This document shows, piece by piece, positions 5,322-24,963 of a DNA stretch of 64,000 nt (positions within the stretch are counted from its first letter, which is position 1; each line of letters opens with the position of its first letter). The DNA is taken from the IMG/VR virus record IMGVR_UViG_3300025010_000010, one strand, 5' to 3'. The position numbers and the translations under genes were made by a program. Under the pieces are notes generated by a model that worked only from the letters and a program-made list of their open reading frames with translations, made no database searches and was not told the origin of the DNA. This DNA comes from a virus.

Positions 5322-5322
5322 A

Positions 5323-11428: not shown

Positions 11429-11807
11429 TGGAACCAAAAGTGTTAGAGTTTGTAAATATATGTTGGAAAATAAGGTGAAATTTAAGGGATTAACTGCCGA
11501 ACATATTACGAGAATTATAAGCAGAAATTTTGAACAAGTTAGTATAACAACTGTTCAAGATATAAATAGGATAATGAATTTTGAATTTTTTCCATGCACA
11601 AGAAAGAAAAACCCCGCTTTTTTTACTTCTAACTTGAAACGTGAAAATGCGATTGAAAAGTCAATCGATGATAACCAAGGCAAAAATATAGCTGATAATG
11701 ATTTAAATAAAAAAATTGATGATCTTTATTGGATTGTTAGTCTTTTGTGTGATGATCTTGGTGTTGATATTGAAGATTTGGCAAAAAGGGCTGATAATAA
11801 AAAATGA
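11415..11807 (+). CDS. hypothetical protein
   Basis: 130-aa ORF lying between the SbcC halves. Confidence 0.5.
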   Translation: MRGHNGTKSVRVCKYMLENKVKFKGLTAEHITRIISRNFEQVSITTVQDINRIMNFEFFPCTRKKNPAFFTSNLKRENAIEKSIDDNQGKNIADNDLNKKIDDLYWIVSLLCDDLGVDIEDLAKRADNKK

Positions 11808-11814
11808 GGAAACC

Positions 11815-12036
11815 ATGAAAAAAATTATAATTATCTGTCTACTTTTTCTTTCCGGCTGTGCCAGTATGAATACAATGATGGTTAACCCAGCAACAAACGA
11901 AACACAACCATGTCATGCATGGGGATTTGGCTTGATTGGGGTGCCAGTAGCTCTGGTTGCTCATAATAATTGTGTGAATAAATTTAAGGAAGCGGGATAC
12001 GTGCCAGCTGATGAAATAAAAATTTCTACCAAATAA
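11815..12036 (+). CDS. small lipoprotein
   Basis: GAGGAAA RBS; MKKIIIICLLFLSGC lipobox signal peptide. Confidence 0.6.
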   Translation: MKKIIIICLLFLSGCASMNTMMVNPATNETQPCHAWGFGLIGVPVALVAHNNCVNKFKEAGYVPADEIKISTK

Positions 12037-12045
12037 GGGGAAAAA

Positions 12046-12228
12046 ATGGCTGATATCCCATTGACGCTTCTTGAAAATTTACGAGAAATGCAAAAAAATA
12101 TGCCGATGTATTTAGAACTCATAAAAATACAAGCTGAATTGAAAAGAGTAAAATTTCTTGAATTAAAAAATCAAGGATTTACTGATGAACAAGCAATTGA
12201 GCTTTGTAAGGGAAACGCATTGATATGA
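12046..12228 (+). CDS. hypothetical protein
   Basis: 60-aa ORF with an ATGA overlap onto the next gene. Confidence 0.5.
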   Translation: MADIPLTLLENLREMQKNMPMYLELIKIQAELKRVKFLELKNQGFTDEQAIELCKGNALI

Positions 12229-13163
12229 AAGCATCGGCAATACTTACTGCAGATATCGAACTCAGGGCCTATGCCCCTTTGTGTCGGACTGATGATCATT
12301 GGAAAACCCAAGAACGAAAAATCAAATGGCTTAGGGAATTACAGGAGAAACATGACAATTGTCCTATTCTGGATGCCGGGGATTTATTTGACAAGAAATA
12401 TAAAGTCAATCCATCTCATGAACTGTTAGGTTGGGCAATAGAAAATTTACCAAGGCCATTTTATACTGTTCCTGGGAATCATGATCTTCCGGGTAAATCA
12501 ATTGAAAATTATCAGAATTCAGCAATGGCTGTATTGGAAAGGGCTGGTATTGTCACAAGTATAAATTTTCATAAATTTGATAGAAATATTTTATTAAATT
12601 ATCAAAAATGCAATATAGCAAATTTGGCATTAATCCCATGGGGGGTTGGTATTAAGCCGGATTTACCTGCAAATTGGGATAAGGGGATTAATATTGCCCT
12701 TGTTCATGCAATGGTTTACAAAGATTCTCCCCCATTTCCAGGTTGTGAAGGATATTCAGCAAAAGAATTAATGAATCTTCTTCCTGATTTTGATTTAATT
12801 GTTTCAGGACATAATCATCAAACATTTACCCATAAAATTGGGAATCGAATTCTTGTTAATCCTGGTTCATTGATGCGGAATGATGCGGACCAGATTGACC
12901 ATAAACCATCTGTATTTCTTTGGTTTGCGGAAACAAATGAAATTGAGCAGGTATTTGTCCCAATCAGAAAAGGAGTAATCAGCCGGGAACATATTGAAGA
13001 AGTATATGCAAGAGAAACAAGGCTTGATGCATTTGTAGAAAAATTAGGTGATACCGTTGAACACGGAATTGATTTTTTGAAGAATTTGGAAACAGCAACG
13101 GATAATAAAGAAATTCCTCAACCTGTGAAAGATAAGGTTTGGGGATATGTCGAACAAAAATAA
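12225..13163 (+). CDS. sbcD: SbcD/Mre11-like metallophosphoesterase nuclease
   Basis: Calcineurin-like motifs GDLFD, VPGNHD, ALVHA and SGHNHQ, in the position expected between SbcC-like pieces. Confidence 0.75.
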   Translation: MKASAILTADIELRAYAPLCRTDDHWKTQERKIKWLRELQEKHDNCPILDAGDLFDKKYKVNPSHELLGWAIENLPRPFYTVPGNHDLPGKSIENYQNSAMAVLERAGIVTSINFHKFDRNILLNYQKCNIANLALIPWGVGIKPDLPANWDKGINIALVHAMVYKDSPPFPGCEGYSAKELMNLLPDFDLIVSGHNHQTFTHKIGNRILVNPGSLMRNDADQIDHKPSVFLWFAETNEIEQVFVPIRKGVISREHIEEVYARETRLDAFVEKLGDTVEHGIDFLKNLETATDNKEIPQPVKDKVWGYVEQK

Positions 13164-13401
13164 ATCAAGGAAACAAGAAATGACACTTGATGAAATGACC
13201 AGAAAACTTGAACAGAAAAAGGAAAGAGCCGCTGAACTCCGAGGGGAGAAGACTTCACAAATTAAACGGCTTGCCGAGGAAGGATGTAAGACAATTGAAG
13301 AAGCCGAAAAGGAAATTGAAAAAGAAGAATTGAAAGCCGCAAAACTCCAGAAAGAATTTGACAAAAAACTTGAGCAACTTGAAACAGAATATGAGTGGTA
13401 A
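13147..13401 (+). CDS. coiled-coil protein (possible descending coiled-coil piece of the split SbcC)
   Basis: 84 aa, almost entirely charged heptad repeats (KLEQKKERAAELRGE...). Confidence 0.45.
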   Translation: MSNKNKSRKQEMTLDEMTRKLEQKKERAAELRGEKTSQIKRLAEEGCKTIEEAEKEIEKEELKAAKLQKEFDKKLEQLETEYEW

Positions 13402-14037
13402 ATGAATACTCAACAATTCAGATCAGCAATTGACCAGAGAAAGGGTAAACGGGATCAAATTCAAAATCAAATTGATTCTACCCGTTTGGAATCCCAAAAA
13501 CTCAGAAGGGAACACAGGTTAGCGGAACGGGCCAAAATCCTAATTCAAACGGTTGCTCAGCAAACTCAGGAAGAGTTGAAATATCAATTATCGGAACTTC
13601 CCAAACTCGCATTGCAGGGGGTTTTTGATGATCCTTATGATTTTGAAGTTGCAATTGAATTGAGAAGGGGGAAAACAGAAGCTGATTTTTGGTTTGTTAG
13701 GGATGGACAAAGATTGAATCCTAAAAAATCAACTGGCCTTGGCTCCGTTGATATTGCTGGAACAGCATTAAGGGCTGCATTATGGAGCTTAAAAAGGCCA
13801 AGAAACAGGCCAATTATATTTTTGGATGAACCATTTAAACATTTGAAAGGGCAAGAAACAAATATCAGAGCCTTGGCAATGCTAAAAGAAATTTGTAAAC
13901 CAAGACCTGAACAGAATTGGCCTGGATTACAAATTATAATGATTGCGGACGAGCGGGCATCAAGAGACGACCTTGAATTGGTTGCCGATAAAATATTTGA
14001 ATTTTCGATTAAAAACAGGGAAACAAAAGTAAAATAA
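13402..14037 (+). CDS. SbcC/Rad50-like ATPase, C-terminal half (signature-like + Walker B/D-loop)
   Basis: N-terminal coiled coil, then KSTGLGSVDIAGTALRAAL (signature-like) and PIIFLDEPFKHL (Walker B). Confidence 0.5.
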   Translation: MNTQQFRSAIDQRKGKRDQIQNQIDSTRLESQKLRREHRLAERAKILIQTVAQQTQEELKYQLSELPKLALQGVFDDPYDFEVAIELRRGKTEADFWFVRDGQRLNPKKSTGLGSVDIAGTALRAALWSLKRPRNRPIIFLDEPFKHLKGQETNIRALAMLKEICKPRPEQNWPGLQIIMIADERASRDDLELVADKIFEFSIKNRETKVK

Positions 14038-14049
14038 AAGGAGGACAAA

Positions 14050-14358
14050 ATGTTTCAATCAATTACGAATGCTCATGTAATAGGAATGCTTGTAGCCATC
14101 GCAATTTTCTTTAGCGGTGCAATATCTGGAATATGGTGGAAAGAATTAATTAATTTGGGAATTGTTAAAAATGGGGATTTTTTATCGAAAAGTGTAGAAG
14201 AAAAAATTAAACAAAAAGCAGTAAAACTTGGATATGCATTTTGGGAAGTTGATGAATTTGGAGAAACAGCCTTCACCTGGAAGGAAAATGTTAATATCAA
14301 TATTTATCAGGCAGGTGGGATAACAAGCCTCTGCGGAGAACGGGAAAATAAATTATGA
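14050..14358 (+). CDS. membrane protein
   Basis: GGAGGACAAAATG start context; N-terminal TM (VIGMLVAIAIFFSGAISGIWW). This is the last AT-rich gene before the compositional switch. Confidence 0.55.
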   Translation: MFQSITNAHVIGMLVAIAIFFSGAISGIWWKELINLGIVKNGDFLSKSVEEKIKQKAVKLGYAFWEVDEFGETAFTWKENVNINIYQAGGITSLCGERENKL

Positions 14359-14362
14359 ACAA

Positions 14363-14495
14363 GTACGGCGGTGGCGGAAAGGGTAGACGCTATGGATACG
14401 GCCCAGACCAGTGCGATATGGCCAATCGAGCTGTCGTAAGCGCAAATGCCTAAGTTGCTGGAGTGCAGAGTTCGATTCTCTGCCAGCCGTACACC
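14363..14495 (+). tRNA. aberrant tRNA-like element (tRNA-Leu-type acceptor/D arm and canonical T arm, ~40 nt too long, no foldable anticodon arm); possibly pseudo, intron-bearing or a novel tRNA-derived RNA
   Basis: The 5' end reads ACGGCGG-TG-GCG-GAAAGGGTAGA-CGC, which has the class II Leu D-arm architecture. The T arm is CAGAG-TTCGATT-CTCTG (14466-14482). The 3' acceptor strand CC(A)GCCGT pairs with the 5' strand with one bulge, and the discriminator is A14491. Confidence 0.45.
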
Positions 14496-14508
14496 TTAAG
14501 GAGGGGAT

Positions 14509-14820
14509 ATGCACTATACTGATAGCATAATGGATGGGGTAGATTGGGACGCGCCAGGGAGTAAAGAAAAATTAAACACATCAACACTGACCTTGCTTGT
14601 TCCTGCTTTAAGGCAATATCAGCACAATGATGGATCAGGGTTGCTTGCTGGATATGATAGGAATGAAACGGAAAGAATTGTTGCTGGCCTGGCCGCCCGC
14701 ATCCAGCAGCTCGAAGCCGAGCTTGCGCAGAAGGATGAGGCGCTGAGGGAGATAGAAACCATTGCTATATTGACAAAATTTATGGATATAGCCGACAAGG
14801 CCAGGGAGGGGCTGAAATAA
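14509..14820 (+). CDS. hypothetical protein (GC-rich island)
   Basis: AAGGAGG RBS; 103 aa; coiled-coil C-terminus. Confidence 0.6.
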   Translation: MHYTDSIMDGVDWDAPGSKEKLNTSTLTLLVPALRQYQHNDGSGLLAGYDRNETERIVAGLAARIQQLEAELAQKDEALREIETIAILTKFMDIADKAREGLK

Positions 14821-15053
14821 TGGAGGGAGCAATGGACACGGAAGCGAATGAGAAAAGCGGAGAGGTTGGCGCTCCGGTTGAGGCTGTGGTTATTTCACGC
14901 CCAGACGGAATTAAAAAAATGTTGTGCATGGAGGTGTTGTGCGCCCGGTGCGGTGAGGTTAATCATCACGAATATACGTCGCTCCCCACATTGGTTGAGT
15001 GTTTTTTCTGTGGGCTGAAGGGAGAGATATCCGACAAGGCCAGGGTGAAATAA
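14820..15053 (+). CDS. hypothetical zinc-ribbon protein (GC-rich island)
   Basis: TAATG overlap with the upstream gene; CARCG...CFFCG. Confidence 0.5.
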   Translation: MEGAMDTEANEKSGEVGAPVEAVVISRPDGIKKMLCMEVLCARCGEVNHHEYTSLPTLVECFFCGLKGEISDKARVK

Positions 15054-15223
15054 AACGCCCCACGCCGGGAGGGAGGTCCAGCATGGGGCAACCGTCCCGA
15101 GGAGGTGTAGGACGGAACTATTGATTCATTTCCTTCAGAGCTTTCATCATTTTACGGTGCTTCTCTTCCCGCCGCCGTTCAATCAGCGGAACAAGATTCA
15201 ATATTTTCTGTTTCGGAGGTTTC

Positions 15224-15607
15224 TTAACTCCGGTAGAATTCGTGGTTTCCAATCTTTTTCACCAGTGCCATACTCGCGGCCCAGGGTGGCCTGACAACGG
15301 AAGGATTGAAATAATGATCAGCGCCGTGCAGGGTAAATCCAGTCAGCCGCTCTGCAAAGGCATCCACCACAGACACCGCACATTTAATCATTTCCTGCGG
15401 CGATTTGATTGCCGGGATAGATCCGCCATTGTACCATGAGAACTGTTGCGACGCCCTAATTACCTCTTCCACGTCCTGCTTCCGTCGCTGTGCCCTGTTC
15501 AGCACGACATGACAGATTGCAATGCGTCCCTCATTCGATTCGCCCCGCGCCTCAAAATAGAGGTTGATGGTCAGCCAGAACAGCCAATCAATCCATTTTG
15601 CGTTCAT
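15224..15607 (-). CDS. cell-wall hydrolase, SleB/CwlJ (Hydrolase_2) type; likely endolysin
   Basis: NLYFEARGES..G..AI.HVVLNR ... QFSWY ... HYF pattern of Hydrolase_2. Start trimmed to the ATG at 15607 after GGGAG. Confidence 0.75.
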   Translation of the reverse strand: MNAKWIDWLFWLTINLYFEARGESNEGRIAICHVVLNRAQRRKQDVEEVIRASQQFSWYNGGSIPAIKSPQEMIKCAVSVVDAFAERLTGFTLHGADHYFNPSVVRPPWAASMALVKKIGNHEFYRS

Positions 15608-15795
15608 TCGATCTCCCTGAAATAAATACACTCCTGCGGGCAACACGCCTTTGCCGTGAGTATCAGCTCCTCAATATCATCGCTGCGCCTGCAAACAATC
15701 TGCCGCCCCCCATACATCGAGACAAAACCGGGTACCCATTCCTCACAGCATTCGCACATCGTGCAGGCTGGCCCAGCGCAGAGGATGAATTTCAT
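15604..15795 (-). CDS. small Cys-rich protein
   Basis: ATGA overlaps at both ends; CAGPACTMCECCEE. Confidence 0.5.
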   Translation of the reverse strand: MKFILCAGPACTMCECCEEWVPGFVSMYGGRQIVCRRSDDIEELILTAKACCPQECIYFREIE

Positions 15796-16325
15796 GGCCT
15801 GATTGTCCAAACGTCTATTGGCAGGCCGTGGTGTCGAATATCCTTTTTCGTCTCTTCGACAAACCGCACATTCGCCGGGTTCTCCAGGATAAACAGAATG
15901 CCGCCCCTGTCCCTCCCGGACAACCGCATGTACCTGAGGGCCTGCCCCATGGCTTCGTAATGCTTGAACCCTGCGAACTCCACCTCAACCGCGTGGGTAT
16001 CGGTCAGGCAATCAATCTCCTTGCTCTGGATGGTGACCACCTTCCCGCCGTGGGCATCACACCATTTCTTTTGGAAAAAGGATTCCGGCAAGGGATGGCC
16101 GGCAATTGCACTTGTGGTCACCGCATGAGCCATAAAACAGATTGTTGTCAATATTTTGCAAAATCTGAGCGACAACATCATAAAAAACACCACCAGCAGG
16201 TAGATTCGTACCCGCAGAACCAGAAATAAATGAACGTCAGGACCGGGCCGAGGATCGATCCGCCAATTATCAGATATTGTTTTGTGAGCCTGGTCATGCT
16301 TCGTGATTGATCGGTGGGATTTCAA
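15792..16325 (-). CDS. membrane-anchored or secreted protein with a PD-(D/E)XK-like motif (start uncertain)
   Basis: Hydrophobic segment YLLVVFFMMLSL, then IDCLTDTHAVEVEFAGFK...GQALRY. The function assignment is tentative. Confidence 0.45.
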   Translation of the reverse strand: MKSHRSITKHDQAHKTISDNWRIDPRPGPDVHLFLVLRVRIYLLVVFFMMLSLRFCKILTTICFMAHAVTTSAIAGHPLPESFFQKKWCDAHGGKVVTIQSKEIDCLTDTHAVEVEFAGFKHYEAMGQALRYMRLSGRDRGGILFILENPANVRFVEETKKDIRHHGLPIDVWTIRP

Positions 16326-16764
16326 GCTTGTTTGCTATTCTACCCAAGTAAACCAGGATGTTTGTTTTCCAGCGCTGGTCAGTATCTTTCCACCGTTGGT
16401 CTTCTTCCCTGGCCTTGTCGCGGGAATGGTCCATCTCATCCTGCCTTACTGATACGTCTGTCACTTTATCAAAAATAGCCTTCCGACATTTAACTGAATC
16501 AGCTTCGTGGTCGGACCAAGTTATGCAATGCTCTTTAAGCGCCGTGATCTCCCTGCCGTGACTTGATACAGTTTGGCGCATATCATCAAGTTTAGACACG
16601 GTTGCCCGCATGTCCTCAAGTTTGGATACAGTTGCCCGCATATCCTCAAATTGCTGATCCTTTGCCCCCTCGGCTCTTGCCCGTCTACGGTCAAGTGAGA
16701 TTACCGTTCCGATTGTTACAGCAGCAGACAAAACAGTTACCACCACCGAAAGTTCAATGTTCAT
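16294..16764 (-). CDS. type II membrane coiled-coil protein with decapeptide repeats (i-spanin-like architecture)
   Basis: Start trimmed to the ATG at 16764 after AAGGAG. N-terminal TM (LSVVVTVLSAAVTIGTVI), then EDMRATVSKL x2.5 and a coiled coil. Confidence 0.6.
   Translation of the reverse strand: MNIELSVVVTVLSAAVTIGTVISLDRRRARAEGAKDQQFEDMRATVSKLEDMRATVSKLDDMRQTVSSHGREITALKEHCITWSDHEADSVKCRKAIFDKVTDVSVRQDEMDHSRDKAREEDQRWKDTDQRWKTNILVYLGRIANKLEIPPINHEA
16561..16667 (-). repeat. ~3.5 tandem copies of a 30-bp unit (in-frame decapeptide repeat)
   Basis: Units are gcatatcatcaagtttagacacggttgccc, gcatgtcctcaagtttggatacagttgccc and gcatatcctcaaattgctgatcctttgccc, plus a partial leading copy. Confidence 0.85.
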
Positions 16765-16828
16765 CCCCAGCTCCTTTGCCCGGCCTGTTGAGGCTCGCGA
16801 GCTTTCATTTTTATTCCCTTTGCCCGGA

Positions 16829-17038
16829 CTACTTACGAGCGTACTTTTTTGGTATTGACTTAGTCCGCCCCTGTTCGTCTTTCCAAAATTCCCAACTCGC
16901 CGTCCCGTCCGCGGACCAAGAAGTACAGCCATTGGTGAAGCAGACTGCCGTACCATTTTTCCAATGTGAGAAATACCGCTTCTCCCATTCCAGGCCTGTG
17001 TTGCTCACGTAAATCTTGTCGTTCTTTTTCATTTTCAT
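16829..17038 (-). CDS. hypothetical protein
   Basis: 69 aa; ATGA overlap with the upstream gene. Confidence 0.5.
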   Translation of the reverse strand: MKMKKNDKIYVSNTGLEWEKRYFSHWKNGTAVCFTNGCTSWSADGTASWEFWKDEQGRTKSIPKKYARK

Positions 17039-17481
17039 GGTTTGAGCGCCTCATTGTTGAAGTCAGGCCAGAGGCCTATTTCTTTTTGTTTCTGCTTCAA
17101 TTCCCAGAATATCTGGCCCAATGCCAATTTTGTATTGACACCGCTGTAATAGACCATAGCCGTCTGTCGGCGCAACATCTTCAACCATTCCCACCTCGAT
17201 TTGTTGTCTATGATGGAAAGCGTGTTTAGCAAGAAGAGCCTATTCATCAACGTGAACCCGTCTTGCGTCGGCTCAGTCATTTCCATATCAGTGTCGTGGA
17301 AATAGCAAGCAGGGCTTATCCTGAGGAACCAAATGCGCTCTGGTACGACTTTCTCCCAAAACCCTTGTCCTGCCCCGCAGCAATCAGGGAACTCGCTCAA
17401 CGTCTTGTATGGAACCTCTATGCCCTTGCGAACGATGAAGGGTACACCATCAAGAGTGATGAGATCGTAGGTGTCGAACAT
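17035..17481 (-). CDS. hypothetical protein (possibly DUF1353-like)
   Basis: 148 aa; CYFHDTDM and downstream hydrophobic helix pattern. Tentative. Confidence 0.5.
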   Translation of the reverse strand: MFDTYDLITLDGVPFIVRKGIEVPYKTLSEFPDCCGAGQGFWEKVVPERIWFLRISPACYFHDTDMEMTEPTQDGFTLMNRLFLLNTLSIIDNKSRWEWLKMLRRQTAMVYYSGVNTKLALGQIFWELKQKQKEIGLWPDFNNEALKP

Positions 17482-17483
17482 GA

Positions 17484-17684
17484 CTATTCGCCGCGATTCG
17501 CCTTTACTGCCTTGTGTGCAAACCCACCACCTACGAACAGCAGCCCCAACTCATCACAGACGCCAGCCCAAATGATAAGATGAGGAAAATAATTCCTTAG
17601 AATTACTGATACAGTAAAAAGAAGTGAACCGATTGCAACTTTCTTCCCGCTGAAGAACTCCCATGCTTGCTCAAAAATGTTCAT
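17484..17684 (-). CDS. small two-TM membrane protein (holin candidate)
   Basis: 66 aa with two hydrophobic spans and a charged C-terminus (KAVKANRGE). Confidence 0.45.
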   Translation of the reverse strand: MNIFEQAWEFFSGKKVAIGSLLFTVSVILRNYFPHLIIWAGVCDELGLLFVGGGFAHKAVKANRGE

Positions 17685-17899
17685 AGCCCACCTCCCGGAA
17701 CCAGTGGAATGGTAACTTCCGGTTTGATGTCAGGGGTATTCGTCGCCCGCTCGTCGGTGTTCGACTTCATGACCTCCGTAGAAAACGGACTGTGGCAGAT
17801 CATAAATGTCCCGCCTTCGTGAACATGAATCGTCAGGTTTCGGCTTGAGTTTGCGCACCCGGCCAGCATCATCACCGCAATCAGTATCAGGTATCTCAT
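17681..17899 (-). CDS. small lipoprotein (o-spanin-like)
   Basis: MRYLILIAVMMLAGC lipobox; ATGA overlaps at both ends. Confidence 0.6.
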   Translation of the reverse strand: MRYLILIAVMMLAGCANSSRNLTIHVHEGGTFMICHSPFSTEVMKSNTDERATNTPDIKPEVTIPLVPGGGL

Positions 17900-18090
17900 A
17901 AGCCCCTCCTGTTCCAAATTTTAACGTCATACCTTTGCACAATCATCCGCGCCCCTTCGTCCTCGTTGATATTCCATTCCTGGTTGTTCAGCGATAGGAA
18001 GCAGTCCGGTTTGTGGTTTATGGCAAATGCTATTTCCCCAAGCGGTTCCGGCTCTGCTTTGCACCACGGGCATTTTTTCATTTTGACCAT
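17896..18090 (-). CDS. small zinc-binding protein (Lar-like N-terminus, tentative)
   Basis: MKKCPWCKAEPEP...; TGATG overlap with the upstream stop. Confidence 0.4.
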   Translation of the reverse strand: MVKMKKCPWCKAEPEPLGEIAFAINHKPDCFLSLNNQEWNINEDEGARMIVQRYDVKIWNRRGL

Positions 18091-18875
18091 CAATATTTGT
18101 GGTAACACTCTCCGGTATGCTTCTGGTAATCAGCCAGCCCGTCCCCGCGCCCGTCTGAATAGTGCTGATACTTCTTCCCGCCGATGGTCCAGACGAACAG
18201 GCCAGCGGTCTGCGTTTCGCTCTTTTTCTGGAAGTAGTGATTCGTCCACTGCTCCCGGCCTACGCCCTTGTCAAGTCCGTCTTTCATATGGAAGTGAAAT
18301 GCGGTATCATGAAAGGTCACACTGGTCACATCATCCCCGGCACAGAATACAATCGTGGTGCCTTGGCCATTCCAACTCATGTGATTGATGTGGGCGAACC
18401 GCTTTGATTCTACCGCACCATCAGCAGGAGGCGTTACCGGAGGGGTAACTGGTGGAGGAGTAACAGTCTCGCCGCTGGGATAGCTGATATACGCTTTCTT
18501 GTCCCGGAAGCTGGCAGGAGCGATTACAACCATCGTCCGCCGAGTCTCCGAGTTGCGAACTTCAACTTGAGAGTCCTTATAGGCCATCGAAATGGTGTAC
18601 TTTTTGTACGCACCGTCAACCCCAATAAAGAGATCAAACTTGCCATAGTCCGCAATCGGCTTGGGGAAGTACCAATCTGTTTCAGCCGAGAAAACAGCCT
18701 TCACCCCTTGCTCCGTAACTGATGTCTGCACTGGAGGTGGAGGAGTTACAGGCGGAGGGGTAACTGGCGGATTCACCGGCTTGCCGTCGAACCAGCCACC
18801 GGGAAGCGTGCCCTTTGCATACGCTGAACCGCAGGTGATGAATATTGCCAGCGATAAAATGATAAGTCGTTTCAT
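18090..18875 (-). CDS. secreted protein with two proline-rich PPVTPP linkers
   Basis: Signal peptide MKRLIILSLAIFITCGSAYA. Pro-rich linkers PPVTPPPVTPPPP (nt 18732-18770) and VTPPPVTPPVTPP (nt 18426-18464). Confidence 0.6.
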   Translation of the reverse strand: MKRLIILSLAIFITCGSAYAKGTLPGGWFDGKPVNPPVTPPPVTPPPPVQTSVTEQGVKAVFSAETDWYFPKPIADYGKFDLFIGVDGAYKKYTISMAYKDSQVEVRNSETRRTMVVIAPASFRDKKAYISYPSGETVTPPPVTPPVTPPADGAVESKRFAHINHMSWNGQGTTIVFCAGDDVTSVTFHDTAFHFHMKDGLDKGVGREQWTNHYFQKKSETQTAGLFVWTIGGKKYQHYSDGRGDGLADYQKHTGECYHKY

Positions 18876-19069
18876 TTTTTCTCCTTATACTTCACAAAAA
18901 CGTGAGGATTGATGATATAATACCGCAGCAGCTCCCCGCAGTTCGGGCACGGCCCGATCATCTTCTTCTCGGTCGCGGTCTTGATAAACTGCTCTCCGAC
19001 AATCTGCTTCTTGCAGTACGGGCATGATCCGAGGGGACTTTTAACCTTGCCGCTGAGTTTGATTTTCAT
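18872..19069 (-). CDS. small zinc-ribbon protein
   Basis: Trimmed to the ATG at 19069 (ATGA overlap); CPYC...CPNC. Confidence 0.5.
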   Translation of the reverse strand: MKIKLSGKVKSPLGSCPYCKKQIVGEQFIKTATEKKMIGPCPNCGELLRYYIINPHVFVKYKEKK

Positions 19070-19647
19070 TCTCTCCCCCGCATCAGCCACGGAATAATTA
19101 CCGTAGCCAGTACAACCTGAGTTTCGTTCACCTGCTCCGGTACCCGCTTTTTGTGATATCTCAAACATGGCAGACAGGCCGGTACCGCGTTCATCGCCGC
19201 GTCAAATGCTGCTTGTGCCCCTGCGCCGTTGCTCATCTCTCGGTAAAAAGTATCCTGCCAAGCTACTGTTTGCGGCCAGCACTCGCCGCACTCCGACTCA
19301 GACATATTGCAGTAGCCAACCGATTCATCTGCCGACTCCGCAAAAGTCCCATCAGCAACCGAGCACATCCCGTCGCAGCTCGCGAAGAATCCCAGTCGGT
19401 ACCCGGTAAGCTGGTCCGGGGTGATATCCGGTCTGCTGCACAGCGGGGTGATAAGCTGCGGCCCACCATGTGCGATCTCGTAGAACTGATCGGGCGCATC
19501 CCAGAAAGCTGCGTTCATTGCCCACGGGTGCCACTCCCAGGTGCAGCCCTCGTAGGCCCCTTCGATCACGGTGCCATGAGCCTGGACAGCAAGCGTCAGG
19601 AGGAGGGCGAGAATTACGGCTATTGCCCATTTATCCCAGGTGGTCAT
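19066..19647 (-). CDS. secreted Cys-rich protein with C-terminal hydrophobic anchor
   Basis: Signal peptide WAIAVILALLLTLAVQAHG, many Cys, C-terminal VVLATVIIPWLM. Confidence 0.55.
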   Translation of the reverse strand: MTTWDKWAIAVILALLLTLAVQAHGTVIEGAYEGCTWEWHPWAMNAAFWDAPDQFYEIAHGGPQLITPLCSRPDITPDQLTGYRLGFFASCDGMCSVADGTFAESADESVGYCNMSESECGECWPQTVAWQDTFYREMSNGAGAQAAFDAAMNAVPACLPCLRYHKKRVPEQVNETQVVLATVIIPWLMRGRE

Positions 19648-19649
19648 TG

Positions 19650-20225
19650 TTAATACCCCAGCACCGTCATCATCTGAGCAGTCTTTTCGGCCTGTCCCGC
19701 TGCGCTATAATGCGTTCCATCTGTAGTCATCGTTGCCCCATCATCCCCGCCCTCAAGCCATACTCGCTCATCATCTCCCAAATGTGCTATCAACGGACGA
19801 TCAGATACAATGGTGCCTATTGCCGCCGCTATTTGATTCCACTCTGTTCCTATTCGTGCCCACGGTCGGCTCAAATAAAAATCAGCGTTTGGGCATACAG
19901 TAGCCAGTTGGTCTATAAGACTTTCATAGTCAGATACCCATACCGCAACTTCACCAGCATTGTCAAAATCAATACTCGCTTGATCGTTTACCCCAAAATT
20001 AATTAATATTTTTTTAGTATTCTCAGGATCGTCTATTTCGGCGATTTTGTCATCTATCACAGCAAGAAAACTGGCAACAGTAGCACCAGAAATCCCGATG
20101 TTAAAATGTGTCCAGCCTGTTTCTTCTTCAACGTTTACAGCAGCATCAAGATCACTCGGCCACGAATTAGGCCAGGTAGCGTCTGTTTTGCTATCCCCGG
20201 CCATAACTATATTCTCCGTGACCAC
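19650..20225 (-). CDS. SGNH/GDSL-family hydrolase (esterase or deacetylase)
   Basis: Block I MAGDSKT, block III FGVND, block V DGTHYS. Confidence 0.75.
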   Translation of the reverse strand: MVTENIVMAGDSKTDATWPNSWPSDLDAAVNVEEETGWTHFNIGISGATVASFLAVIDDKIAEIDDPENTKKILINFGVNDQASIDFDNAGEVAVWVSDYESLIDQLATVCPNADFYLSRPWARIGTEWNQIAAAIGTIVSDRPLIAHLGDDERVWLEGGDDGATMTTDGTHYSAAGQAEKTAQMMTVLGY

Positions 20226-20243
20226 GGGTATATAGCATGTATC

Positions 20244-22352
20244 TCATAACCCAACGCATAAATAATTGAATTTTCCACTTTGTATATCGCCAGAAAATGT
20301 AACTGTTATTGCGGAGGTTGACGATGCTGATAAGTATGATGTTACGTTAGCTTGAGGAATAACTATGCATGACGGTTCAGCTGTAAATGCAGACGCGAAA
20401 GTTACTGTGCATGCAGTAACCGCGCCCCCTCCGCCAACTGTTACAATCCCTGATGTATCTGAACCTGTGATTGTCGGAGATGTCCCGCACGACGATACAG
20501 CCGGATCAGCCCCAGATGATACAATGTGCGATTTATTTGTTATCCTAAGTTGCGGAGTACCACCAACCTGTAAATTAACAATGTTATGCTCGCCAGTACC
20601 AATGGCTGTTTCTGTCCGGTTGATAAACAAATCATTAGCCCCGGCAGTATCAGTCTGGTTATATATTGGGAGTATTGCTACACCATTAAAGGTCTCGCCG
20701 GTCCCTTGCGTTAGTGTATGCCCTGATCCTCCAAAAAATTCGACTCCGTTATCCGTATTGTTGTATGTATTGGTCCCGTTAATAGCCAGAGTGCTATTAT
20801 TTGATCCATGTTTTATTAGTGGCCCAACAAATCCAGCGGTCGTAAGGCCCCCCGAAATAACGGAATCACCAGCATTTGATACATTAAATCTTGACGTTCC
20901 ATCCTTTCCAGACCAAATCAAATATGATGTACCAGGGGATGATGTATCGGTTTGGTTGATATACAGTCCGTAGTCAGCTCCACTTGTCGCCTTATTCGTT
21001 GTATACGACAAATTCAAAGCCTTTTCGTCCCCCGTTGCTTCGTCCAGCACGATAGGTGTTGTCGGGGTAATAGCGGTTGTCACTGCAGCGGTAAACGCCC
21101 CGGCACCACCATCGGCCTTGCAGTACCAAAGATCAGCATCGGCGTCATAGGCCACGACATAGTCATCAGTGCAACCCTCAGCCGTTGCAGCGGTCATGTC
21201 GAGCAGTTGTTTAGTCGCCGCCCCGTTGTAGTATCTCAACGCACCGCCGGTAAAATTGGTTACAGTCGAGTCGTGCCTGGTATACCCAGCTGTAGCCGTT
21301 ACGTCAGCGTTGGACGAAGGCAACTTGAACTGTGTGTCAACTGCAAAGTTGTTCGCGGTCCACAGGGAGGCGGAAGAGGTAAGTGTTGCGCTCTGGTCAT
21401 TCTGCCCGGATATCACCGCGCCGTCACCGAAGAAGACATCAGCCCATTCTACCGTTGCGGAGCCGAGTGCAATGGTGTTTGCGGCGTTGGGGACGGGGGC
21501 GCCTGTCATGGCAACCGAGCCGTCTGCCAGGAAATCACCAGCCCCAGCAGCTTCGGCCTTGCAGTAAAACAAATCTGCGTCGGCATCGTAGGCTACGACC
21601 TGATCGTCTGTACATCCTTCAGCCGTTGCCGCTACCATATCCACAGCCTGCCGGATATTCGTACCGTCATGCCACCTGACTGCACCGTGCGCATGATTGG
21701 TCACTGTCGTGTCATGGACAAGATACCCGGCGGTCGCGGTTGGGTCCGCATTGGCTGCAGGAAGCCGCCATGTGGCAGATGCAAAATCGAAGGCATTGGC
21801 CGGCGCGGTCCCCCCAGGGATATCGGCAAGATTTACCTGCCCAGCACCGGAGCCCCAATCAACATGCGTGTCTTTGACGTTATCGGTTCCTGCAGTGAGC
21901 AAGGCTGTTGGATCAGTTTCAGCAGTGAGATACGCCCCAAGATCGGAAATATCTGACTCGGTAATCCCGGCAGGCTCATACGTCCCCGACAAGTCCGGAA
22001 TATCATCAGCCACCAAAGCCCTGAAAGTAGGCGCGGCGGCTGCCCCGGAGGTCGGCCCGGCAAGCACATAATTCGCCACCTGCACATCCGCGCTCAACTC
22101 CTGACCCGCTGAGATACCAAAAATGTCAGTCAGGCTGGCGGCGAGAGTTACCGCATCGTGACCACCGGCAAGGGTTTCGATCTTTGCCGCAACTGCGGTA
22201 GCCGGAGCGTAGCAGTTTGCATATTGCGCCTGCCAGGACTCCGCGTTGTAGGGGATGGGGGCGCGGCAGGGGGGAGGGATGGCTGGTGGCCCAGCGGCCA
22301 TCACGATTGAATAATAAAATAATATAAATAAAACAACTATTAATTTTTTCAC
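20244..22352 (-). CDS. fibre/receptor-binding-like repeat protein with N-terminal signal-peptide-like segment (GTG start)
   Basis: 702 aa, rich in Ala/Gly/Thr/Asp/Asn. It carries the motif YVLAGPTSGAAAAPTFRALVADDIPDL, which I recall from phage tail-fibre proteins. Two ~72-aa paralogous modules. It lies downstream of the tail genes. Confidence 0.6.
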   Translation of the reverse strand: MKKLIVVLFILFYYSIVMAAGPPAIPPPCRAPIPYNAESWQAQYANCYAPATAVAAKIETLAGGHDAVTLAASLTDIFGISAGQELSADVQVANYVLAGPTSGAAAAPTFRALVADDIPDLSGTYEPAGITESDISDLGAYLTAETDPTALLTAGTDNVKDTHVDWGSGAGQVNLADIPGGTAPANAFDFASATWRLPAANADPTATAGYLVHDTTVTNHAHGAVRWHDGTNIRQAVDMVAATAEGCTDDQVVAYDADADLFYCKAEAAGAGDFLADGSVAMTGAPVPNAANTIALGSATVEWADVFFGDGAVISGQNDQSATLTSSASLWTANNFAVDTQFKLPSSNADVTATAGYTRHDSTVTNFTGGALRYYNGAATKQLLDMTAATAEGCTDDYVVAYDADADLWYCKADGGAGAFTAAVTTAITPTTPIVLDEATGDEKALNLSYTTNKATSGADYGLYINQTDTSSPGTSYLIWSGKDGTSRFNVSNAGDSVISGGLTTAGFVGPLIKHGSNNSTLAINGTNTYNNTDNGVEFFGGSGHTLTQGTGETFNGVAILPIYNQTDTAGANDLFINRTETAIGTGEHNIVNLQVGGTPQLRITNKSHIVSSGADPAVSSCGTSPTITGSDTSGIVTVGGGGAVTACTVTFASAFTAEPSCIVIPQANVTSYLSASSTSAITVTFSGDIQSGKFNYLCVGL
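21114..21770 (-). repeat. internal duplication: two ~72-aa modules (21555-21770 and 21114-21329) within the fibre-like gene
   Basis: Copy 1 is WRLPAANADPTATAGYLVHDTTVTN...ATAEGCTDDQVVAYDADADLFYCKA. Copy 2 is FKLPSSNADVTATAGYTRHDSTVTN...ATAEGCTDDYVVAYDADADLWYCKA. Confidence 0.85.
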
Positions 22353-22383
22353 AATTTATCAACCTCCTTTTATATTCTGCTTT

Positions 22384-22389
22384 ATTATA
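22384..22389 (-). promoter_or_regulatory. candidate -10 box (TATAAT on - strand) upstream of the fibre-like gene
   Basis: The - strand reads TTTTAGGATATAATAAAGCAGAATATAAAAGGAGGTTGATAAATTGTG. This gives TATAAT, then AAGGAGG, then the GTG start. Confidence 0.3.
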
Positions 22390-22421
22390 TCCTAAAACTC
22401 TTATATTTCTAAATTTTATTT

Positions 22422-22925
22422 TTATCTATCCGCATACAATCCATAAAACTTCAAATAAAATTTTGAACCAGAAACAGCATTGCCAGTAGTTGATATTGTC
22501 CAAATTTCAGAATATACCGGCCACAAATAGGTTGAAATACCAAGAAATGTATTTTTGCCCAATGTTTCCTGTTTCGTTGTTTCATCAATAAAATTCGTTC
22601 CATTTGCCCCAAGTAAGGAAAGTCCATCGGAATCAGTAATGATCAAATCAGTTTCATCAGTTGGAGCAGGAGAAGAAGGAATATATTTGATTTTATAAAT
22701 ATATTGTCCTGACAATTTCTGCATTGCAGATTCATCACCATTCGAGGCCAAAGGGGCAGAAAGAGAATTATCAGTATGATGAGTGCAAAGAATAGTCAGA
22801 ACTGTTCCAACTTTATTTCCCCGATAATCTTTGACAACTTCCCAATCTGTTTCTGTACAAGTTCCAGCGGCAAAAACATTCCCGTAAAACAATAATGCAA
22901 ATAATACAACAATAAACTTTTTCAT
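22422..22925 (-). CDS. secreted protein (signal peptide paralogous to that of the fibre-like gene)
   Basis: MKKFIVVLFALLFYGNVFAAG; GGAG RBS. Confidence 0.6.
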   Translation of the reverse strand: MKKFIVVLFALLFYGNVFAAGTCTETDWEVVKDYRGNKVGTVLTILCTHHTDNSLSAPLASNGDESAMQKLSGQYIYKIKYIPSSPAPTDETDLIITDSDGLSLLGANGTNFIDETTKQETLGKNTFLGISTYLWPVYSEIWTISTTGNAVSGSKFYLKFYGLYADR

Positions 22926-22936
22926 CTCATTTCTCC

Positions 22937-23203
22937 TTAATTTCTTTGAATCTGTTGACCAGCCTGTTTTGACATTCTTTTTGAGATGATTATATCCCTT
23001 TCTTTTGAGAAAATTACTTGAGCCTGATAAGGAATATGAATCATTTTATTATCTATTGTTGTAAAAAACCTAAATGGTTCAGGAAGGTTTATAAATTCCC
23101 CGGAATCAACCAGTCTTGAAGTAATTCCATCGCCTATTACATTTTTAATTGTTGTCCAAAACCAATCTTCTTTCAATTTATATTTAACCGTGTAACTGTC
23201 CAT
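22937..23203 (-). CDS. hypothetical protein
   Basis: 88 aa; AAGGAG RBS. Confidence 0.55.
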   Translation of the reverse strand: MDSYTVKYKLKEDWFWTTIKNVIGDGITSRLVDSGEFINLPEPFRFFTTIDNKMIHIPYQAQVIFSKERDIIISKRMSKQAGQQIQRN

Positions 23204-23236: not shown

Positions 23237-24169
23237 TTAAGCAACCTTCATGATATAAAAACATGAAAGAAAAAGTGGCCTATTTTCATTTGAACTTGCT
23301 GCTGTTGCATCTACTGCTGTATTTCCGGTTGCTGCTGCTGTATTCCCGCTTGCTGCCCCAGTATTCGTATAATTTGAAGCATAAGTTGAACCATGTTCAT
23401 GAGTTGCCCCAGAACCAGCAGAAGAAGAAGTATAAACACCTCCTAATCCTTTATTCGAAATATATTCAGCGCTATCAATCGTCCCGGAAGTAACCGTATT
23501 GATCATCTGAACTGTATGACTATGCGCTGGCAATTGAGCAATTGTCAATGCAACAGGAGGAGTTACATGTGTATGACTCTGCATCGAATGAACATGACTA
23601 TTCAATCCGTGCGTATGACTATTCATTCCATGACTATGGGAATGGGTATGGCTATTTGAAGCAGCGCCACCAATACTGCCAGCAGTTGTATCCCCCATAA
23701 TAAAACGAGAATCCGTTAAATTTGGAAGATATCGACTTGCCCCGTTAAATATCCCAGTTCCAGTATTTAAGGCAGCGCCGTTACAAACATACCAATTATC
23801 CGCATTAAGATAAGCATTTGCTAAAGCAACACTATTTCCTCCAAGCAAAACATCTGTATAACTTCCATTTGATCCGTCCCCAAAATATCCACCAATCCAA
23901 GGAACAATTGAACCAGCAGGAATTCCGGCGTCTACAGGTTGACGTTGAAGTTTCCAACGCTTATCCCCAGCAGCGGAATCATCAGGGGAAATAATACTCG
24001 GAGAACTTTCAGCAGCACCCGAATCAACATCTAATTGATAAAGATAAAATGTTGTTCCATTTGCAACAATACATAAATCCTTATCATTAAGAATTGAACT
24101 GTCAATTCCATCAAGATCAGTTGCCGCACCACCAGTAATCCCTTGCCGATAATAAACAATAACAGCCAT
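23237..24169 (-). CDS. tail fibre protein with phage tail-collar domain and His-rich repeat
   Basis: IVPWIGG...NWYVCNGAALN...YLPNLTDSRFIMG (tail-collar pattern). It also has HTHSHSHGMNSHTHGLNSHVHSMQSHTH and LTIAQLPAHSH (MdpB/COG4675-like). Confidence 0.65.
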   Translation of the reverse strand: MAVIVYYRQGITGGAATDLDGIDSSILNDKDLCIVANGTTFYLYQLDVDSGAAESSPSIISPDDSAAGDKRWKLQRQPVDAGIPAGSIVPWIGGYFGDGSNGSYTDVLLGGNSVALANAYLNADNWYVCNGAALNTGTGIFNGASRYLPNLTDSRFIMGDTTAGSIGGAASNSHTHSHSHGMNSHTHGLNSHVHSMQSHTHVTPPVALTIAQLPAHSHTVQMINTVTSGTIDSAEYISNKGLGGVYTSSSAGSGATHEHGSTYASNYTNTGAASGNTAAATGNTAVDATAASSNENRPLFLSCFYIMKVA

Positions 24170-24963
24170 TATCTTACCTCCGTTAATTGATATGTCAATT
24201 CTGTATATCCATTGAGTTCTGGTGAGTGCCTTCCTTTAGGATCAACCGTAAATCTTGCATAAACAAGCCATCTCGAATCATTCAAATCAGTAATAAGCCA
24301 AGCAGCAGGCCGCATCTTAACAATCTTTTTTACAAGAAATAAAAAATCATTAAAGGCACTATCCCTTGTAATTATGTGTCTATTGTCGAATGTTCTTAAA
24401 ACATCCCTATCTTTTACAAATACCGCCCCAGAATTATATTCATCAACAAAGGACAAATCTTTTGTCCCCTCCATAATTTCCCCATGAGGACCGGCAAAAG
24501 ATAAAATCAGTCCAGCAACAATAGTTCCGGCAAATACCGCAGCACCGGCAGAATTAGCAAGAGAAACAATTATTTCAAGATCAGCCGATACTTGATCCCA
24601 TTGAATCATAAATGCTCCGGTCTCATCGTCTTGGGCAGCAATAGTTTCTGTAGGAACAATAAAACTAGACCATTCAATACCGGCTTCCCATTCAACCCCA
24701 TCATCACCAGAAGATAAAACGGCTACTTCCCATTGAATTAAATTCGGATCACTTATTTGAGCCGAAATACTATCTGCATTTGTATTAAAAATTGCAAAAC
24801 CTGAACATAAACCAGAAATTGACACGGTTAAAGTTTCAGAAGCAGTATCCCCCTTCCAAATATGTCCAGGATATTCATCGAGCAAATTCTCGTCAGCATA
24901 ATCTGCACTTTCTTCCGATGAAGCAAGAACACCCGTAATTAAATTTTCAGAAATTACTTTCAT
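24169..24963 (-). CDS. minor tail / baseplate-associated protein (by position)
   Basis: 264 aa; overlapped starts and stops with both neighbouring tail genes. Confidence 0.5.
   Translation of the reverse strand: MKVISENLITGVLASSEESADYADENLLDEYPGHIWKGDTASETLTVSISGLCSGFAIFNTNADSISAQISDPNLIQWEVAVLSSGDDGVEWEAGIEWSSFIVPTETIAAQDDETGAFMIQWDQVSADLEIIVSLANSAGAAVFAGTIVAGLILSFAGPHGEIMEGTKDLSFVDEYNSGAVFVKDRDVLRTFDNRHIITRDSAFNDFLFLVKKIVKMRPAAWLITDLNDSRWLVYARFTVDPKGRHSPELNGYTELTYQLTEVR

Follow-up and report, generated by a model that had tools for sequence, protein, structure and literature searches.

A 64,000-nucleotide (nt) stretch of the virus record IMGVR_UViG_3300025010_000010, referred to below as the window, contains an island of high guanine plus cytosine (GC) content at positions 14363–22352, and the genes, relatives and origin of this island are described here. 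The window is most of the genome of a tailed phage, which is siphovirus-like and roughly 37% GC. Contigs with the same sequence are ~66–68 kb long, so the window is nearly complete. The replication and recombination genes lie on the plus strand at 1–14358 and at 50–64 kb, and encode a DnaE-type polymerase, a clamp loader, RecA, a 5'-3' exonuclease, endonuclease VII, SbcC/SbcD, an ATPase, a primase and a DnaB-like helicase. The virion genes occupy the minus strand at 22.4–50 kb (terminase, portal, Mu-F-like protein, capsid, tail terminator, tail tube, tape-measure chaperones, a tape measure of 1295 amino acids (aa), and distal tail proteins). The early plus-strand arm and the late minus-strand arm converge at 14–22 kb, which is the site of the island.

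The minus-strand operon of the island, which forms the distal end of the late arm, begins with the gene of a 702-aa protein, followed by those of a 191-aa esterase and of proteins of 193, ~65, 261, 72 and 66 aa. Its second half encodes proteins of 148, 212, ~129 and 63 aa, the 127-aa endolysin and a ~27-aa open reading frame (ORF), and ends in a terminator-like hairpin (Table 1). The island genes are tightly packed, with five ATGA overlaps and one TAATG overlap, as the ATGA-type coupling described in the initial annotation had implied, and they have no promoter or terminator matches of their own. Only two island products match curated families, Hydrolase_2 and GDSL_2, and a PADLOC search gave no defence-family match.

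Table 1. Features in and next to the GC-rich island (GC3, GC content at third codon positions; RBS, ribosome-binding site; TM, transmembrane)
Feature	Position	Strand	Basis or remark
Degenerate tRNA-derived element	14365–14492	+	Marks left edge of GC-rich zone
Conserved linker CGTACACCTTAAGGAGGGGATATG: tRNA 3' end, RBS and start codon	14488–14511	+	Candidate left recombination joint
103-aa protein, C-terminal coiled coil	14509–14820	+	ORF; GC3 0.48
77-aa Cys-rich (zinc-ribbon-like) protein	14820–15053	+	TAATG overlap with preceding gene; GC3 0.58
GC-rich intergenic segment, terminator-like hairpins between convergent operons	15052–15149	.	Conserved in L009
Small basic ORF, ~27 aa (...LIERRREEKHRKMMKALKEMNQ*), just after endolysin	15118–15201	-	Codon-level conservation with L009; start codon uncertain
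Endolysin, 127 aa, Hydrolase_2 (SleB/CwlJ-type cell-wall hydrolase)	15224–15607	-	PF07486; GC3 0.57
63-aa Cys-rich protein	15604–15795	-	ATGA overlaps with both neighbours
~129-aa protein, hydrophobic N-terminus	15792–16181	-	37% to syntenic 131-aa gene of L016
212-aa protein, one TM segment then repeated coiled-coil heptads	16294–16932	-	Sequence reading
148-aa protein, best donor marker	17035–17481	-	74% aa, 71% nt identity to L016 5383–5883
66-aa protein, two weakly hydrophobic stretches	17484–17684	-	Holin candidate by size and position only
72-aa lipoprotein, lipobox LAGC	17681–17899	-	Sequence
261-aa exported protein: signal peptide, Pro-rich linkers, two probable immunoglobulin (Ig)-like beta-sandwich domains	18090–18875	-	Homology and AlphaFold
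~65-aa zinc-ribbon ORF	18872–19069	-	ATGA overlaps on both sides; weak Lar-like PHROG match (E=1.5e-4)
193-aa Cys-rich protein, N-terminal signal peptide or anchor	19066–19647	-	Homologues in same slot
SGNH/GDSL esterase, 191 aa, without signal peptide	19650–20225	-	PF13472; GC3 0.38
702-aa fibre-like exported protein, Sec-type signal peptide, Gly/Ala/Thr-rich	20244–22352	-	Context, mosaic homology
Sigma-70-like promoter match TTTAGA-18-TATAAT, 10/12	22413–22384	-	Consensus match only; AT-rich spacer upstream of 702-aa gene

Base composition and integrity of the junctions

The 1-kb windows inside 14400–22000 have GC fractions of 0.43–0.56 with a mean of 0.508, compared to a mean of 0.371 (standard deviation 0.042, maximum 0.471) for 109 such windows outside the island. 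In a two-boundary maximum-likelihood fit, the composition changes at 14307 and at 22305. These change points differ by less than 60 nt and 10 nt, respectively, from the edges given in the initial annotation (14363 and ~22298), whose hand counts of 15/60 and 37/60 G+C are exact on recount. The GC content of the island is 0.513 and that of the adjoining flanks is 0.345 and 0.374. At the right edge, GC drops from 0.70 (22201–22300) to 0.20 (22301–22400) between consecutive 100-nt bins.

The same discontinuity is present in codon usage and in the oligonucleotide profile. The 2311 island codons have a GC3 of 0.537, and the 10687 backbone codons one of 0.283. AGA makes up 12% of the Arg codons in the island and 34% in the backbone, and the share of TTA among Leu codons is 5% and 28%, respectively. 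Matching changes in codon choice are found for Arg, Leu, Ile, Gly, Ala and Thr. Since the GC shift is present at synonymous sites, it is not explained by amino-acid composition. The composition-normalised tetranucleotide profile of the island correlates with that of the 12-kb prophage-like contig L016 at r=0.87, compared to 0.60–0.74 with its own flanks and 0.87–0.95 between flanks.

Assemblies of the phage have been retrieved by exact-protein look-ups; at least six come from different samples, and the contigs follow two naming styles. A single contig spans both junctions in each of ERZ28564294 (99.56% nt identity), ERZ28564079, ERZ28564033 and ERZ27254733 (99.9%), and the left junction alone is found in ERZ27254811 and ERZ28563639. 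Of the seven fetched stretches, four match the window at 100% identity, one at 99.9% and one at 99.56%. Two strain variants, L001 and L003, have been aligned to the window, and all their differences fall in dense short patches outside the island, at 22464–22988, 23975–24196 and 31743–32344. Because the variants differ only outside the island, distinct strains share the same joints. The patches themselves diverge by 7–10% over 200–600 nt, with zero or one difference elsewhere, and resemble tracts of gene conversion within the 167-aa, 310-aa and tail-terminator/tube genes.

Relatives of the phage and joints of the cassette

A megablast search with the island and 20 kb of backbone against 50,697 phage records gave no matches. 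The best protein matches to cultured phages, for the large terminase subunit (TerL) and the polymerase, are below 50% identity, and therefore no host can be inferred from cultured relatives. The loci used for comparison come from several kinds of phage. L009/L010 is a close relative (IMGVR_UViG_3300025087_001646), and L011–L015 are further relatives of the backbone, with 34–39% GC in L013, L014 and L015, 40% in L012 and 49% in L011. L016–L019 represent a 12-kb prophage-like contig type that is uniformly 52% GC. L020 is an 81-kb phage of 54% GC, L025, L027 and L028 are phages of 56% GC, and L029–L031 are contigs of 52–53% GC. L022 is an AT-rich phage contig unrelated to the window phage.

In the close relative, the nt identity to the window is 87% from 27898 down to 22285, and in L009 five tail-side gene products are 82–98% identical and the ATPase 96%. 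Between the matches to window positions 22285 and 15149, L009 has 4.8 kb of unrelated genes. The products of this alternative cassette are a 181-aa protein that shares the signal peptide, an exported protein of 602 aa, a lipoprotein, a protein with a coiled coil and an endolysin of the Hydrolase_2 type, and the cassette is GC-rich too (45–56%). Homology resumes at 15149–15052, in the small ORF after the endolysin and the terminator region. No such GC-rich island is present in L013, L014 or L015, and L012 has a modest local rise to 47–50% over ~1.5 kb.

Loci that resemble a donor have been found among the GC-rich phages. The L016-type contig has RusA, HNH and RHH genes as well as a GH108 endolysin, and has been deposited under a 'Geobacter sp.' metagenome-assembled genome (MAG). 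It has also been assembled from ERZ28564079 (as L019), a sample that contains the window phage. Synteny with L016/L017 extends over the whole island. The identities are 64% for the N-terminus of the fibre-like protein, 37% for the 193-aa, 67% for the 261-aa, 74% for the 148-aa, 37% for the 129-aa and 40% for the 103-aa protein, and directly beyond the island edge the AT-rich 167-aa gene still shows 35% identity to its L016 counterpart. L020 has the same convergent architecture, with SbcCD and ATPase 27–32% identical to those of the window and homologues of the 261-aa protein (67%), the lipoprotein (56%) and the 193-aa protein (30%). L025, L027 and L028, which have SU10-type portals, encode in the same order homologues of the 193-aa protein (63%), the lipoprotein (59–61%), the 261-aa protein (40–43%) and the 167-aa protein (40%). 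Their endolysins are 67–72% identical, as are those on L029–L031.

In total, five island genes and the N-terminal 179 aa of the 702-aa protein have their nearest homologues in uniformly 52–56% GC phages, at 56–74% aa identity and with the gene order for the most part conserved. The flank genes have 60–97% relatives in L009–L015, mostly of 34–41% GC, with the exception of L011 (49% GC). The comparison of nearest relatives proposed in the initial annotation thus separates island from flanks. GC3 is 0.53–0.68 in the donor-like orthologues and 0.48–0.64 in the corresponding island genes, and the AT-rich-phage homologues of the endolysin and the 261-aa protein have values of 0.25–0.34. Scans of IMG/VR with the 148-aa and 702-aa proteins gave no closer donor, and a scan of GTDB genomes with the 261-aa family gave nothing. 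A GTDB scan with the endolysin family returned MAG contigs with inconsistent taxon labels, and these labels have been rejected as host evidence.

The right joint has been located by a three-way alignment. The window is near-identical to L009 through the spacer (with one 1-nt indel), the strong RBS and the signal-peptide codons of the 702-aa gene, and switches to L016-like sequence (CCCTCCCCCCTGCCGCGCCCCCAT...) within ~15 nt (22300–22290), at about codon 20. The joint is in frame and lies directly after the Ala-Ala-Gly of the signal-peptidase site. On the left, the difference from L009 stops immediately past the endolysin gene, and the GC-rich zone runs ~800 nt further, to the tRNA-derived element, as a gene-by-gene patchwork relative to L009. 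The intergenic segment is 89% identical to L009 12417–12514, with one mismatch in its core, and holds a terminator-like site at 15070–15058 on the minus strand. In the slot of the 77-aa gene, L009 has an unrelated 139-aa gene. The C-terminal 41 aa of the 103-aa protein are 85% identical in L009, and this protein is also 40% identical to the product of a syntenic convergent gene of L016 and 55% identical to a protein of L022.

The tRNA-like RNA reported initially, which lies at the left edge, is a homologue, in place and in sequence, of a tRNA of L010, but not a recognisable functional tRNA, as it received no tRNA call from ARAGORN at default settings or from Rfam RF00005 (E<=10). The element aligns at both ends with the tRNA-Arg(TCT) of L010 (1494–1584), which is called by ARAGORN and scores 42.9 bits with the Rfam tRNA model despite a 37-nt stretch where the model expects 18. 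In the window, the acceptor stem has 6/7 pairs, a D-arm-like segment follows, and the T-arm CAGAG-TTCGATT-CTCTG is perfect. There is one extra compensated base pair, and ~72 nt of unrelated sequence take the place of the anticodon arm. The element of L046 has the same ends with a different insert and is likewise unrecognised at default thresholds. Relaxed ARAGORN settings gave a tRNA-Asp with a 38-nt intron (80% threshold) or a reverse-strand tRNA-Met (60%), both rejected as artefacts of the lowered threshold. A 12-bit mascRNA match covers the T-arm only, and Rfam otherwise gave nothing in the island. The element is therefore tRNA-derived, not specific to the island, and probably not a decoding tRNA.

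The linker at the 3' end of the element, in which one position can be either pyrimidine, recurs in exact or near-exact copies in the AT-rich relatives L010, L036 and L046 and in the GC-rich phages L027, L033, L035, L044 and L045, and its carriers include phages of 50–55% GC. It occurs once in the window, and L038 (3316–3360) keeps only the last ~20 nt of the tRNA. A linker shared in this way could serve as a recombination joint. The elements of this family (14365–14511; L010 1494–1600; L027 1212–1305; L046; L038) end in GC plus the linker directly upstream of an ORF, and their middle is variable: it may consist of a normal anticodon arm plus a long extra arm, or else of an aberrant arm or of inserts of ~70–90 nt. 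The family could be a processing signal or a recombination linker.

Origin of the island

Based on these observations, the island is very probably of foreign origin and would have passed recently from a GC-rich lineage to the AT-rich phage, by allelic replacement within a shared late cassette. This assignment is based on the GC-rich relatives, the tetranucleotide match and a GC3 equal to that of the donor-like orthologues. We propose that ~15200–22298, from about codon 20 of the 702-aa gene to the end of the endolysin, would have been replaced by recombination in a co-infected or lysogenic cell, with the incoming allele supplied by a 52–56% GC phage or prophage in that cell. The crossovers would have occurred at short sequences that the two lineages share, namely the signal-peptidase region (Ala-Ala-Gly-Pro-Pro) at the right end and the terminator and small-ORF segment at the left end. 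The backbone would keep supplying the promoter-like site, the RBS and the signal-peptide codons, and the incoming DNA the mature proteins. The tRNA-derived element and the RBS linker would be the start of an older GC-rich patch (14363–15150). The event appears recent, with GC3 as in the donor-like phages and no single-nucleotide polymorphism in the island of the two aligned variants.

Several observations weigh against this proposal. No donor above 80% nt identity has been found, which leaves the true donor unsampled and the event without a firm date. On the left the boundary is ambiguous, as GC-rich sequence continues for ~800 nt beyond the segment that differs from L009. The cassette of L009 is GC-rich as well, so a GC-rich cassette may have been present in the lineage for longer and been swapped repeatedly. 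At the right joint, the similarity to L016 amounts to microhomology, which fits homologous and illegitimate recombination alike. Finally, the evidence for the joints consists of independent assemblies, which are not reads spanning them.

The initial annotation described a coherent operon of foreign origin, and this part agrees with the overlaps, the composition and the GC-rich relatives. Its proposal of a wholesale acquisition is not sustained. The part swapped relative to L009 is only ~15200–22298, and 14363–15150 is partly shared with L009. The esterase has no counterpart in the donor-like loci and an intermediate GC3, and the GC-rich phages nearest to the endolysin differ from those nearest to the fibre, 148-aa and 261-aa genes. 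The island would thus be a composite of at least two or three events. Nor does it bring a new set of functions. It would be an allelic replacement in an architecture that AT-rich and GC-rich phages already share, and the 167-aa gene upstream has 35–41% homologues at the same position in the donor-like loci. Many of the phages in these metagenomes have this cassette architecture, irrespective of GC content and virion type.

The host in which the transfer took place is a separate question. A much GC-richer donor host had been proposed, but the bin labels on the donor-like contigs disagree (Geobacter, Sulfurimonas, Dehalococcoidia, Desulfobacteraceae). Recombination requires both genomes to be co-resident in one cell. 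Since donor-type contigs are also found together with the phage, it is no less plausible that both had one host than that the island was transferred from a much GC-richer host. The same transfer could then have happened without a host jump, with the AT-rich virulent phage as the compositional outlier in a GC-richer host and the island derived from a resident prophage or a co-infecting phage; we give this version a little less than an even chance. It is favoured by the presence of L016-type prophage-like contigs (RusA, HNH, RHH) in the same sample and by the phage's own replication set (DnaE-like polymerase, clamp loader, helicase, primase, RecA, SbcCD). The tRNA-Arg(UCU) of L010 and the 34% share of AGA among backbone Arg codons also fit an AT-rich virulent phage whose GC-richer host has little of that tRNA, although this is suggestive only. 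On the other hand, the tRNA is degenerate in the window itself, the MAG labels conflict, and it is unusual for phage and host to lie 15–20 GC points apart. An outer membrane in the host is suggested by the lipoproteins and the spanin-like genes.

The remaining explanations are far less probable. If the region were native, its GC content would reflect local selection (fibre-like amino-acid content, expression) or a local mutational regime. Other late genes are indeed somewhat GC-richer, such as the capsid region at 0.46–0.49, and the fibre-like protein is rich in Gly, Ala and Pro. However, third codon positions are shifted just as strongly (0.54 vs 0.28), the shift extends over all 13 genes including the small ones, the close relative has unrelated genes between the same breakpoints, and the nearest homologues and the oligonucleotide signature lead to GC-rich phages, which leaves a native origin highly improbable. 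A self-mobile element, either an integrative island or a transposon inserted at a tRNA-like site, would account for the tRNA-derived sequence exactly at the left edge and for the 3' ~20 nt kept by L038, which resemble an att core. We consider it hardly credible, because the island products scanned include no match to an integrase, transposase, recombinase or nuclease family, no direct repeat of the tRNA 3' end was seen at the right edge, the linker is present once in the window, and the right joint lies in frame inside a coding sequence. Least probable of all is that an assembler joined two phages of different GC: the abrupt change does sit exactly at short sequences common to AT-rich and GC-rich phages, which could mislead a de Bruijn assembler, but a chimera is excluded by the independent assemblies, in which the same joints recur at least six times across samples and naming styles, including in the 99.56% and 99.9% variants that differ elsewhere, and the right joint yields an intact signal peptide plus mature protein in an operon whose coupling is unbroken.

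Products of the cassette and relation to known systems

The endolysin is the best-defined product of the island. It matches PF07486 over profile positions 1–100 of 100 (E=3e-16, 60.3 bits against a cut-off of 27) and PHROG 938 'endolysin' (E=3e-20), with a domain-level match to TIGR02869. It is a member of the Hydrolase_2 family and a predicted lysin, in accordance with the SleB/CwlJ assignment made earlier. Its nearest homologues are 60–76% identical, and those with fetched contigs (67–72%) lie on contigs of 52–56% GC. It is 29% identical to the endolysin of L009 and 50–53% identical to those of the AT-rich L013 and L014. No second lysin was recognised among ~40 other window proteins scanned. 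The gene tables that accompany the contigs list nothing at 15054–16293, where there are three coupled ORFs, yet the 127-aa endolysin is present in the protein collection (P0133), so automated annotation of the phage may miss its lysin. Upstream of the endolysin, L027 has a 66-aa Cys-rich ORF with the same 4-nt overlap, and its N-terminus resembles that of the 63-aa protein by eye.

A holin-like protein had also been assigned to the island, and this assignment is not confirmed by the sequence. The candidate, the 66-aa protein, has no PHROG match and no 19-residue window that reaches a Kyte-Doolittle hydrophobicity of 1.6. Its gene adjoins that of the lipoprotein, four genes upstream of the endolysin, and small two-segment proteins occupy the same slot in L016, L020, L025 and L027. 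The 72-aa lipoprotein is 56–61% identical to 67-aa lipoproteins of L020, L025 and L027. Its family matches are weak and at the level of the signal peptide only, including a faint PHROG Cor match, and it could be o-spanin-like or Cor/Llp-like. The 212-aa protein has no Pfam or PHROG match and is a possible i-spanin-like protein. These two spanin candidates (17681–17899, lipobox; 16294–16932, TM and coiled coil) are separated by two genes and have no family matches. From gene order and sequence features, the lysis set would comprise the endolysin, the 66-aa holin candidate and a spanin-like pair of lipoprotein and TM/coiled-coil protein.

The 261-aa protein is 67% identical to homologues in L016 and L020, 64% to that of L022 and 40–43% to those of L025 and L027. 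Its AlphaFold model has a predicted local distance difference test (pLDDT) score of 73, which rises to ~90 in the first domain, and we assign the two Ig-like beta-sandwich domains to it with moderate confidence. The Foldseek matches of the model are to two-domain Ig light chains, which are generic and indicate the fold class only. In L022, the homologue (GC3 0.34) is found inside an array of 25 tRNA genes at 2167–14551. The 193-aa protein has homologues in the same slot throughout, at 63% identity in L027 and L028, 37% in L016 and 30% in L020.

The SGNH assignment of the esterase has been confirmed by a match to PF13472 (E=2e-10, 41.9 bits against a cut-off of 32.9) and by the catalytic motifs GDS at residue 10, GVND at 78 and DGTH at 169 (blocks I, III and V). 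Neither the fetched loci nor, by tblastn, cultured phages yielded a homologue, and the esterase gene is probably a separate insertion. The enzyme may act on an acetylated surface polymer or on peptidoglycan.

The 702-aa protein was originally taken for a fibre or receptor-binding-like protein. Its context and its mosaic homology agree with this, but it has no match in Pfam, PHROG, NCBIfam or the PDB. It is a patchwork in which the matches cover 4–41% of the length at 28–83% identity, and aa 195–284 and 340–425 are an internal duplication. The N-terminal 179 aa are 64% identical to a 451-aa protein of L016. A tblastn search against phages returned one weak match, to an uncultured virus with the predicted host Methanomicrobiales, and the AlphaFold model (pLDDT 54) is too poor for a fold search. 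Homologues in other phages sit between the tail-tip and lysis genes. The AT-rich 167-aa protein (22422–22925) and the 702-aa protein have near-identical signal peptides, MKKFIVVLFALLFYGNVFAAG and MKKLIVVLFILFYYSIVMAAG; the corresponding region of L009 is 6947–8064. The 167-aa protein has homologues of 35–41% identity with signal peptides in L016, L025 and L027, in each case just upstream of a large exported protein.

By inspection, signal peptides or lipoboxes are present at the N-termini of the 702-, 193-, 261- and 72-aa products, which agrees with the several secreted proteins or lipoproteins reported initially, and in every donor-like cassette as well. The sequence features suggest that the cassette would be expressed late from the backbone promoter and that its exported proteins may have envelope-directed roles. 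The island is at most a putative determinant of host range. The backbone keeps its own AT-rich gene of the tail-collar-fibre type (23237–24169; PHROG 1800, E=1e-6) and its distal tail proteins, and the classical Sec signal peptide of the 702-aa protein, like the Sec or lipoprotein signals of its homologues, fits poorly with cytoplasmic tail assembly.

These features raise the possibility, which we put forward with considerable doubt, that the block is a portable cassette of Sec-exported or lipid-anchored envelope proteins (among them the 702-, 193- and 261-aa proteins and the lipoprotein) and lysis genes and not a virion host-range module. Such a cassette would move as a unit among unrelated virion types (siphovirus, SU10-portal, prophage) across ~20 GC points, with tRNA-derived RBS linkers and signal-peptide codons as its joints, and its proteins would act on the surface of the infected cell (for example in exclusion, receptor masking or release) and not in the tail. 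A 'fibre' cassette with signal peptides, made up in large part of exported proteins and possibly mobile between virion types, is the only part of these findings with the potential for something new.

Other genes of atypical content or affiliation have been observed elsewhere in the window. A cluster of sugar- or glycan-type biosynthesis genes lies within the virion arm (33854–40734, minus strand) and encodes a 791-aa fusion of methyltransferase and glycosyltransferase, a short-chain dehydrogenase, a protein resembling transketolase/DXP-synthase, and a Zn-alcohol dehydrogenase. A comparable position in L020 is occupied by glycosyl- and methyltransferases. A CMP-sugar cytidylyltransferase (CTP_transf_3, E=3e-50; 47387–48118, minus strand) is wedged between terminase and portal. 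A second GC-rich patch at 58764–59576 (plus strand) is a single 270-aa ORF with GC 0.50 and GC3 0.52, next to neighbours with GC3 of ~0.28. It has no Pfam, PHROG or PADLOC match and looks moron-like. The best cultured-virus matches of the large terminase (48115–49524) are to Methanoculleus (archaeal) viruses at 47.5% identity, followed by Rhizobium phages; an archaeal host has been rejected in view of RecA, the DnaE-type polymerase, the peptidoglycan hydrolase and the lipobox.

The event as a whole is of a known kind. Modular mosaicism of tailed phages is said to go back to Botstein's modular theory and to have been documented by Hendrix et al. 1999 and by Juhala et al. 2000 (HK97/HK022). As in such mosaics, a block of functionally linked genes has moved between genomes that are otherwise unrelated, with joints at the borders of genes or domains and short conserved linkers at the boundaries, and close relatives have alternative alleles at the same site. 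Unlike typical cases, the contrast of the island is unusually large (16 GC points, 25 GC3 points) and undecayed, the probable donors are present in the same metagenomes, and one joint falls exactly between signal peptide and mature protein.

Swapping of tail-fibre genes with retention of the N-terminus has reportedly been described in the P2, Mu, lambda and T-even families (Haggard-Ljungquist et al. 1992). The 702-aa gene is similar in that its 5' end stays with the backbone while the remainder is replaced, and in that its product is a patchwork of segments 55–83% identical to many unrelated large phage proteins. It differs in that the retained part is a Sec signal peptide of ~20 residues and not a baseplate-attachment domain, and the swap continues through ~12 downstream genes including those for lysis; the 702-aa protein is also no more than a candidate virion protein.

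Morons are single accessory genes of atypical GC content with their own promoter and terminator. The island shares with them an atypical composition in the late region, and the esterase gene, with its intermediate GC3 and its absence from the donor-like loci, and the 261-aa homologue in the AT-rich L022 look like single-gene additions. The island itself is instead the replacement of a 7-kb translationally coupled operon segment without individual promoter or terminator matches, and no insertion between neighbouring genes. The lipoproteins Cor (phi80/N15) and Llp (T5) are encoded next to receptor-binding genes. The 72-aa protein is comparable as a small lipoprotein of the outer-membrane type encoded a few genes after the fibre-like gene, with the faint Cor match confined to the signal peptide; unlike them, it has no significant homology and is equally a candidate o-spanin.

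SGNH esterase domains of phage tailspikes deacetylate O-polysaccharide, an example being Pectobacterium phage PP99 (PMC6989608). The island esterase is likewise an SGNH/GDSL enzyme with an intact catalytic motif, encoded immediately after a fibre-like gene, but it is free-standing, with 191 aa and no fibre or spike domain. Another paper considered as a precedent for GC-discordant modules (PMC3398947) reports no GC difference and has not been used.

The exchange is textbook phage mosaicism at unusually high contrast, and the understanding of phage evolution is unchanged by it. For host prediction it calls for caution, as callers based on composition or k-mers would conflict between island and backbone. 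It provides a natural example of a recent module exchange in which recipient and donor-like lineages are found in the same metagenomes and one breakpoint is placed to ~15 nt. As such, it is a test case for recombination joints, at a signal-peptide boundary and a tRNA-derived linker, and for the rate at which transferred DNA drifts toward the composition of the recipient in phages.

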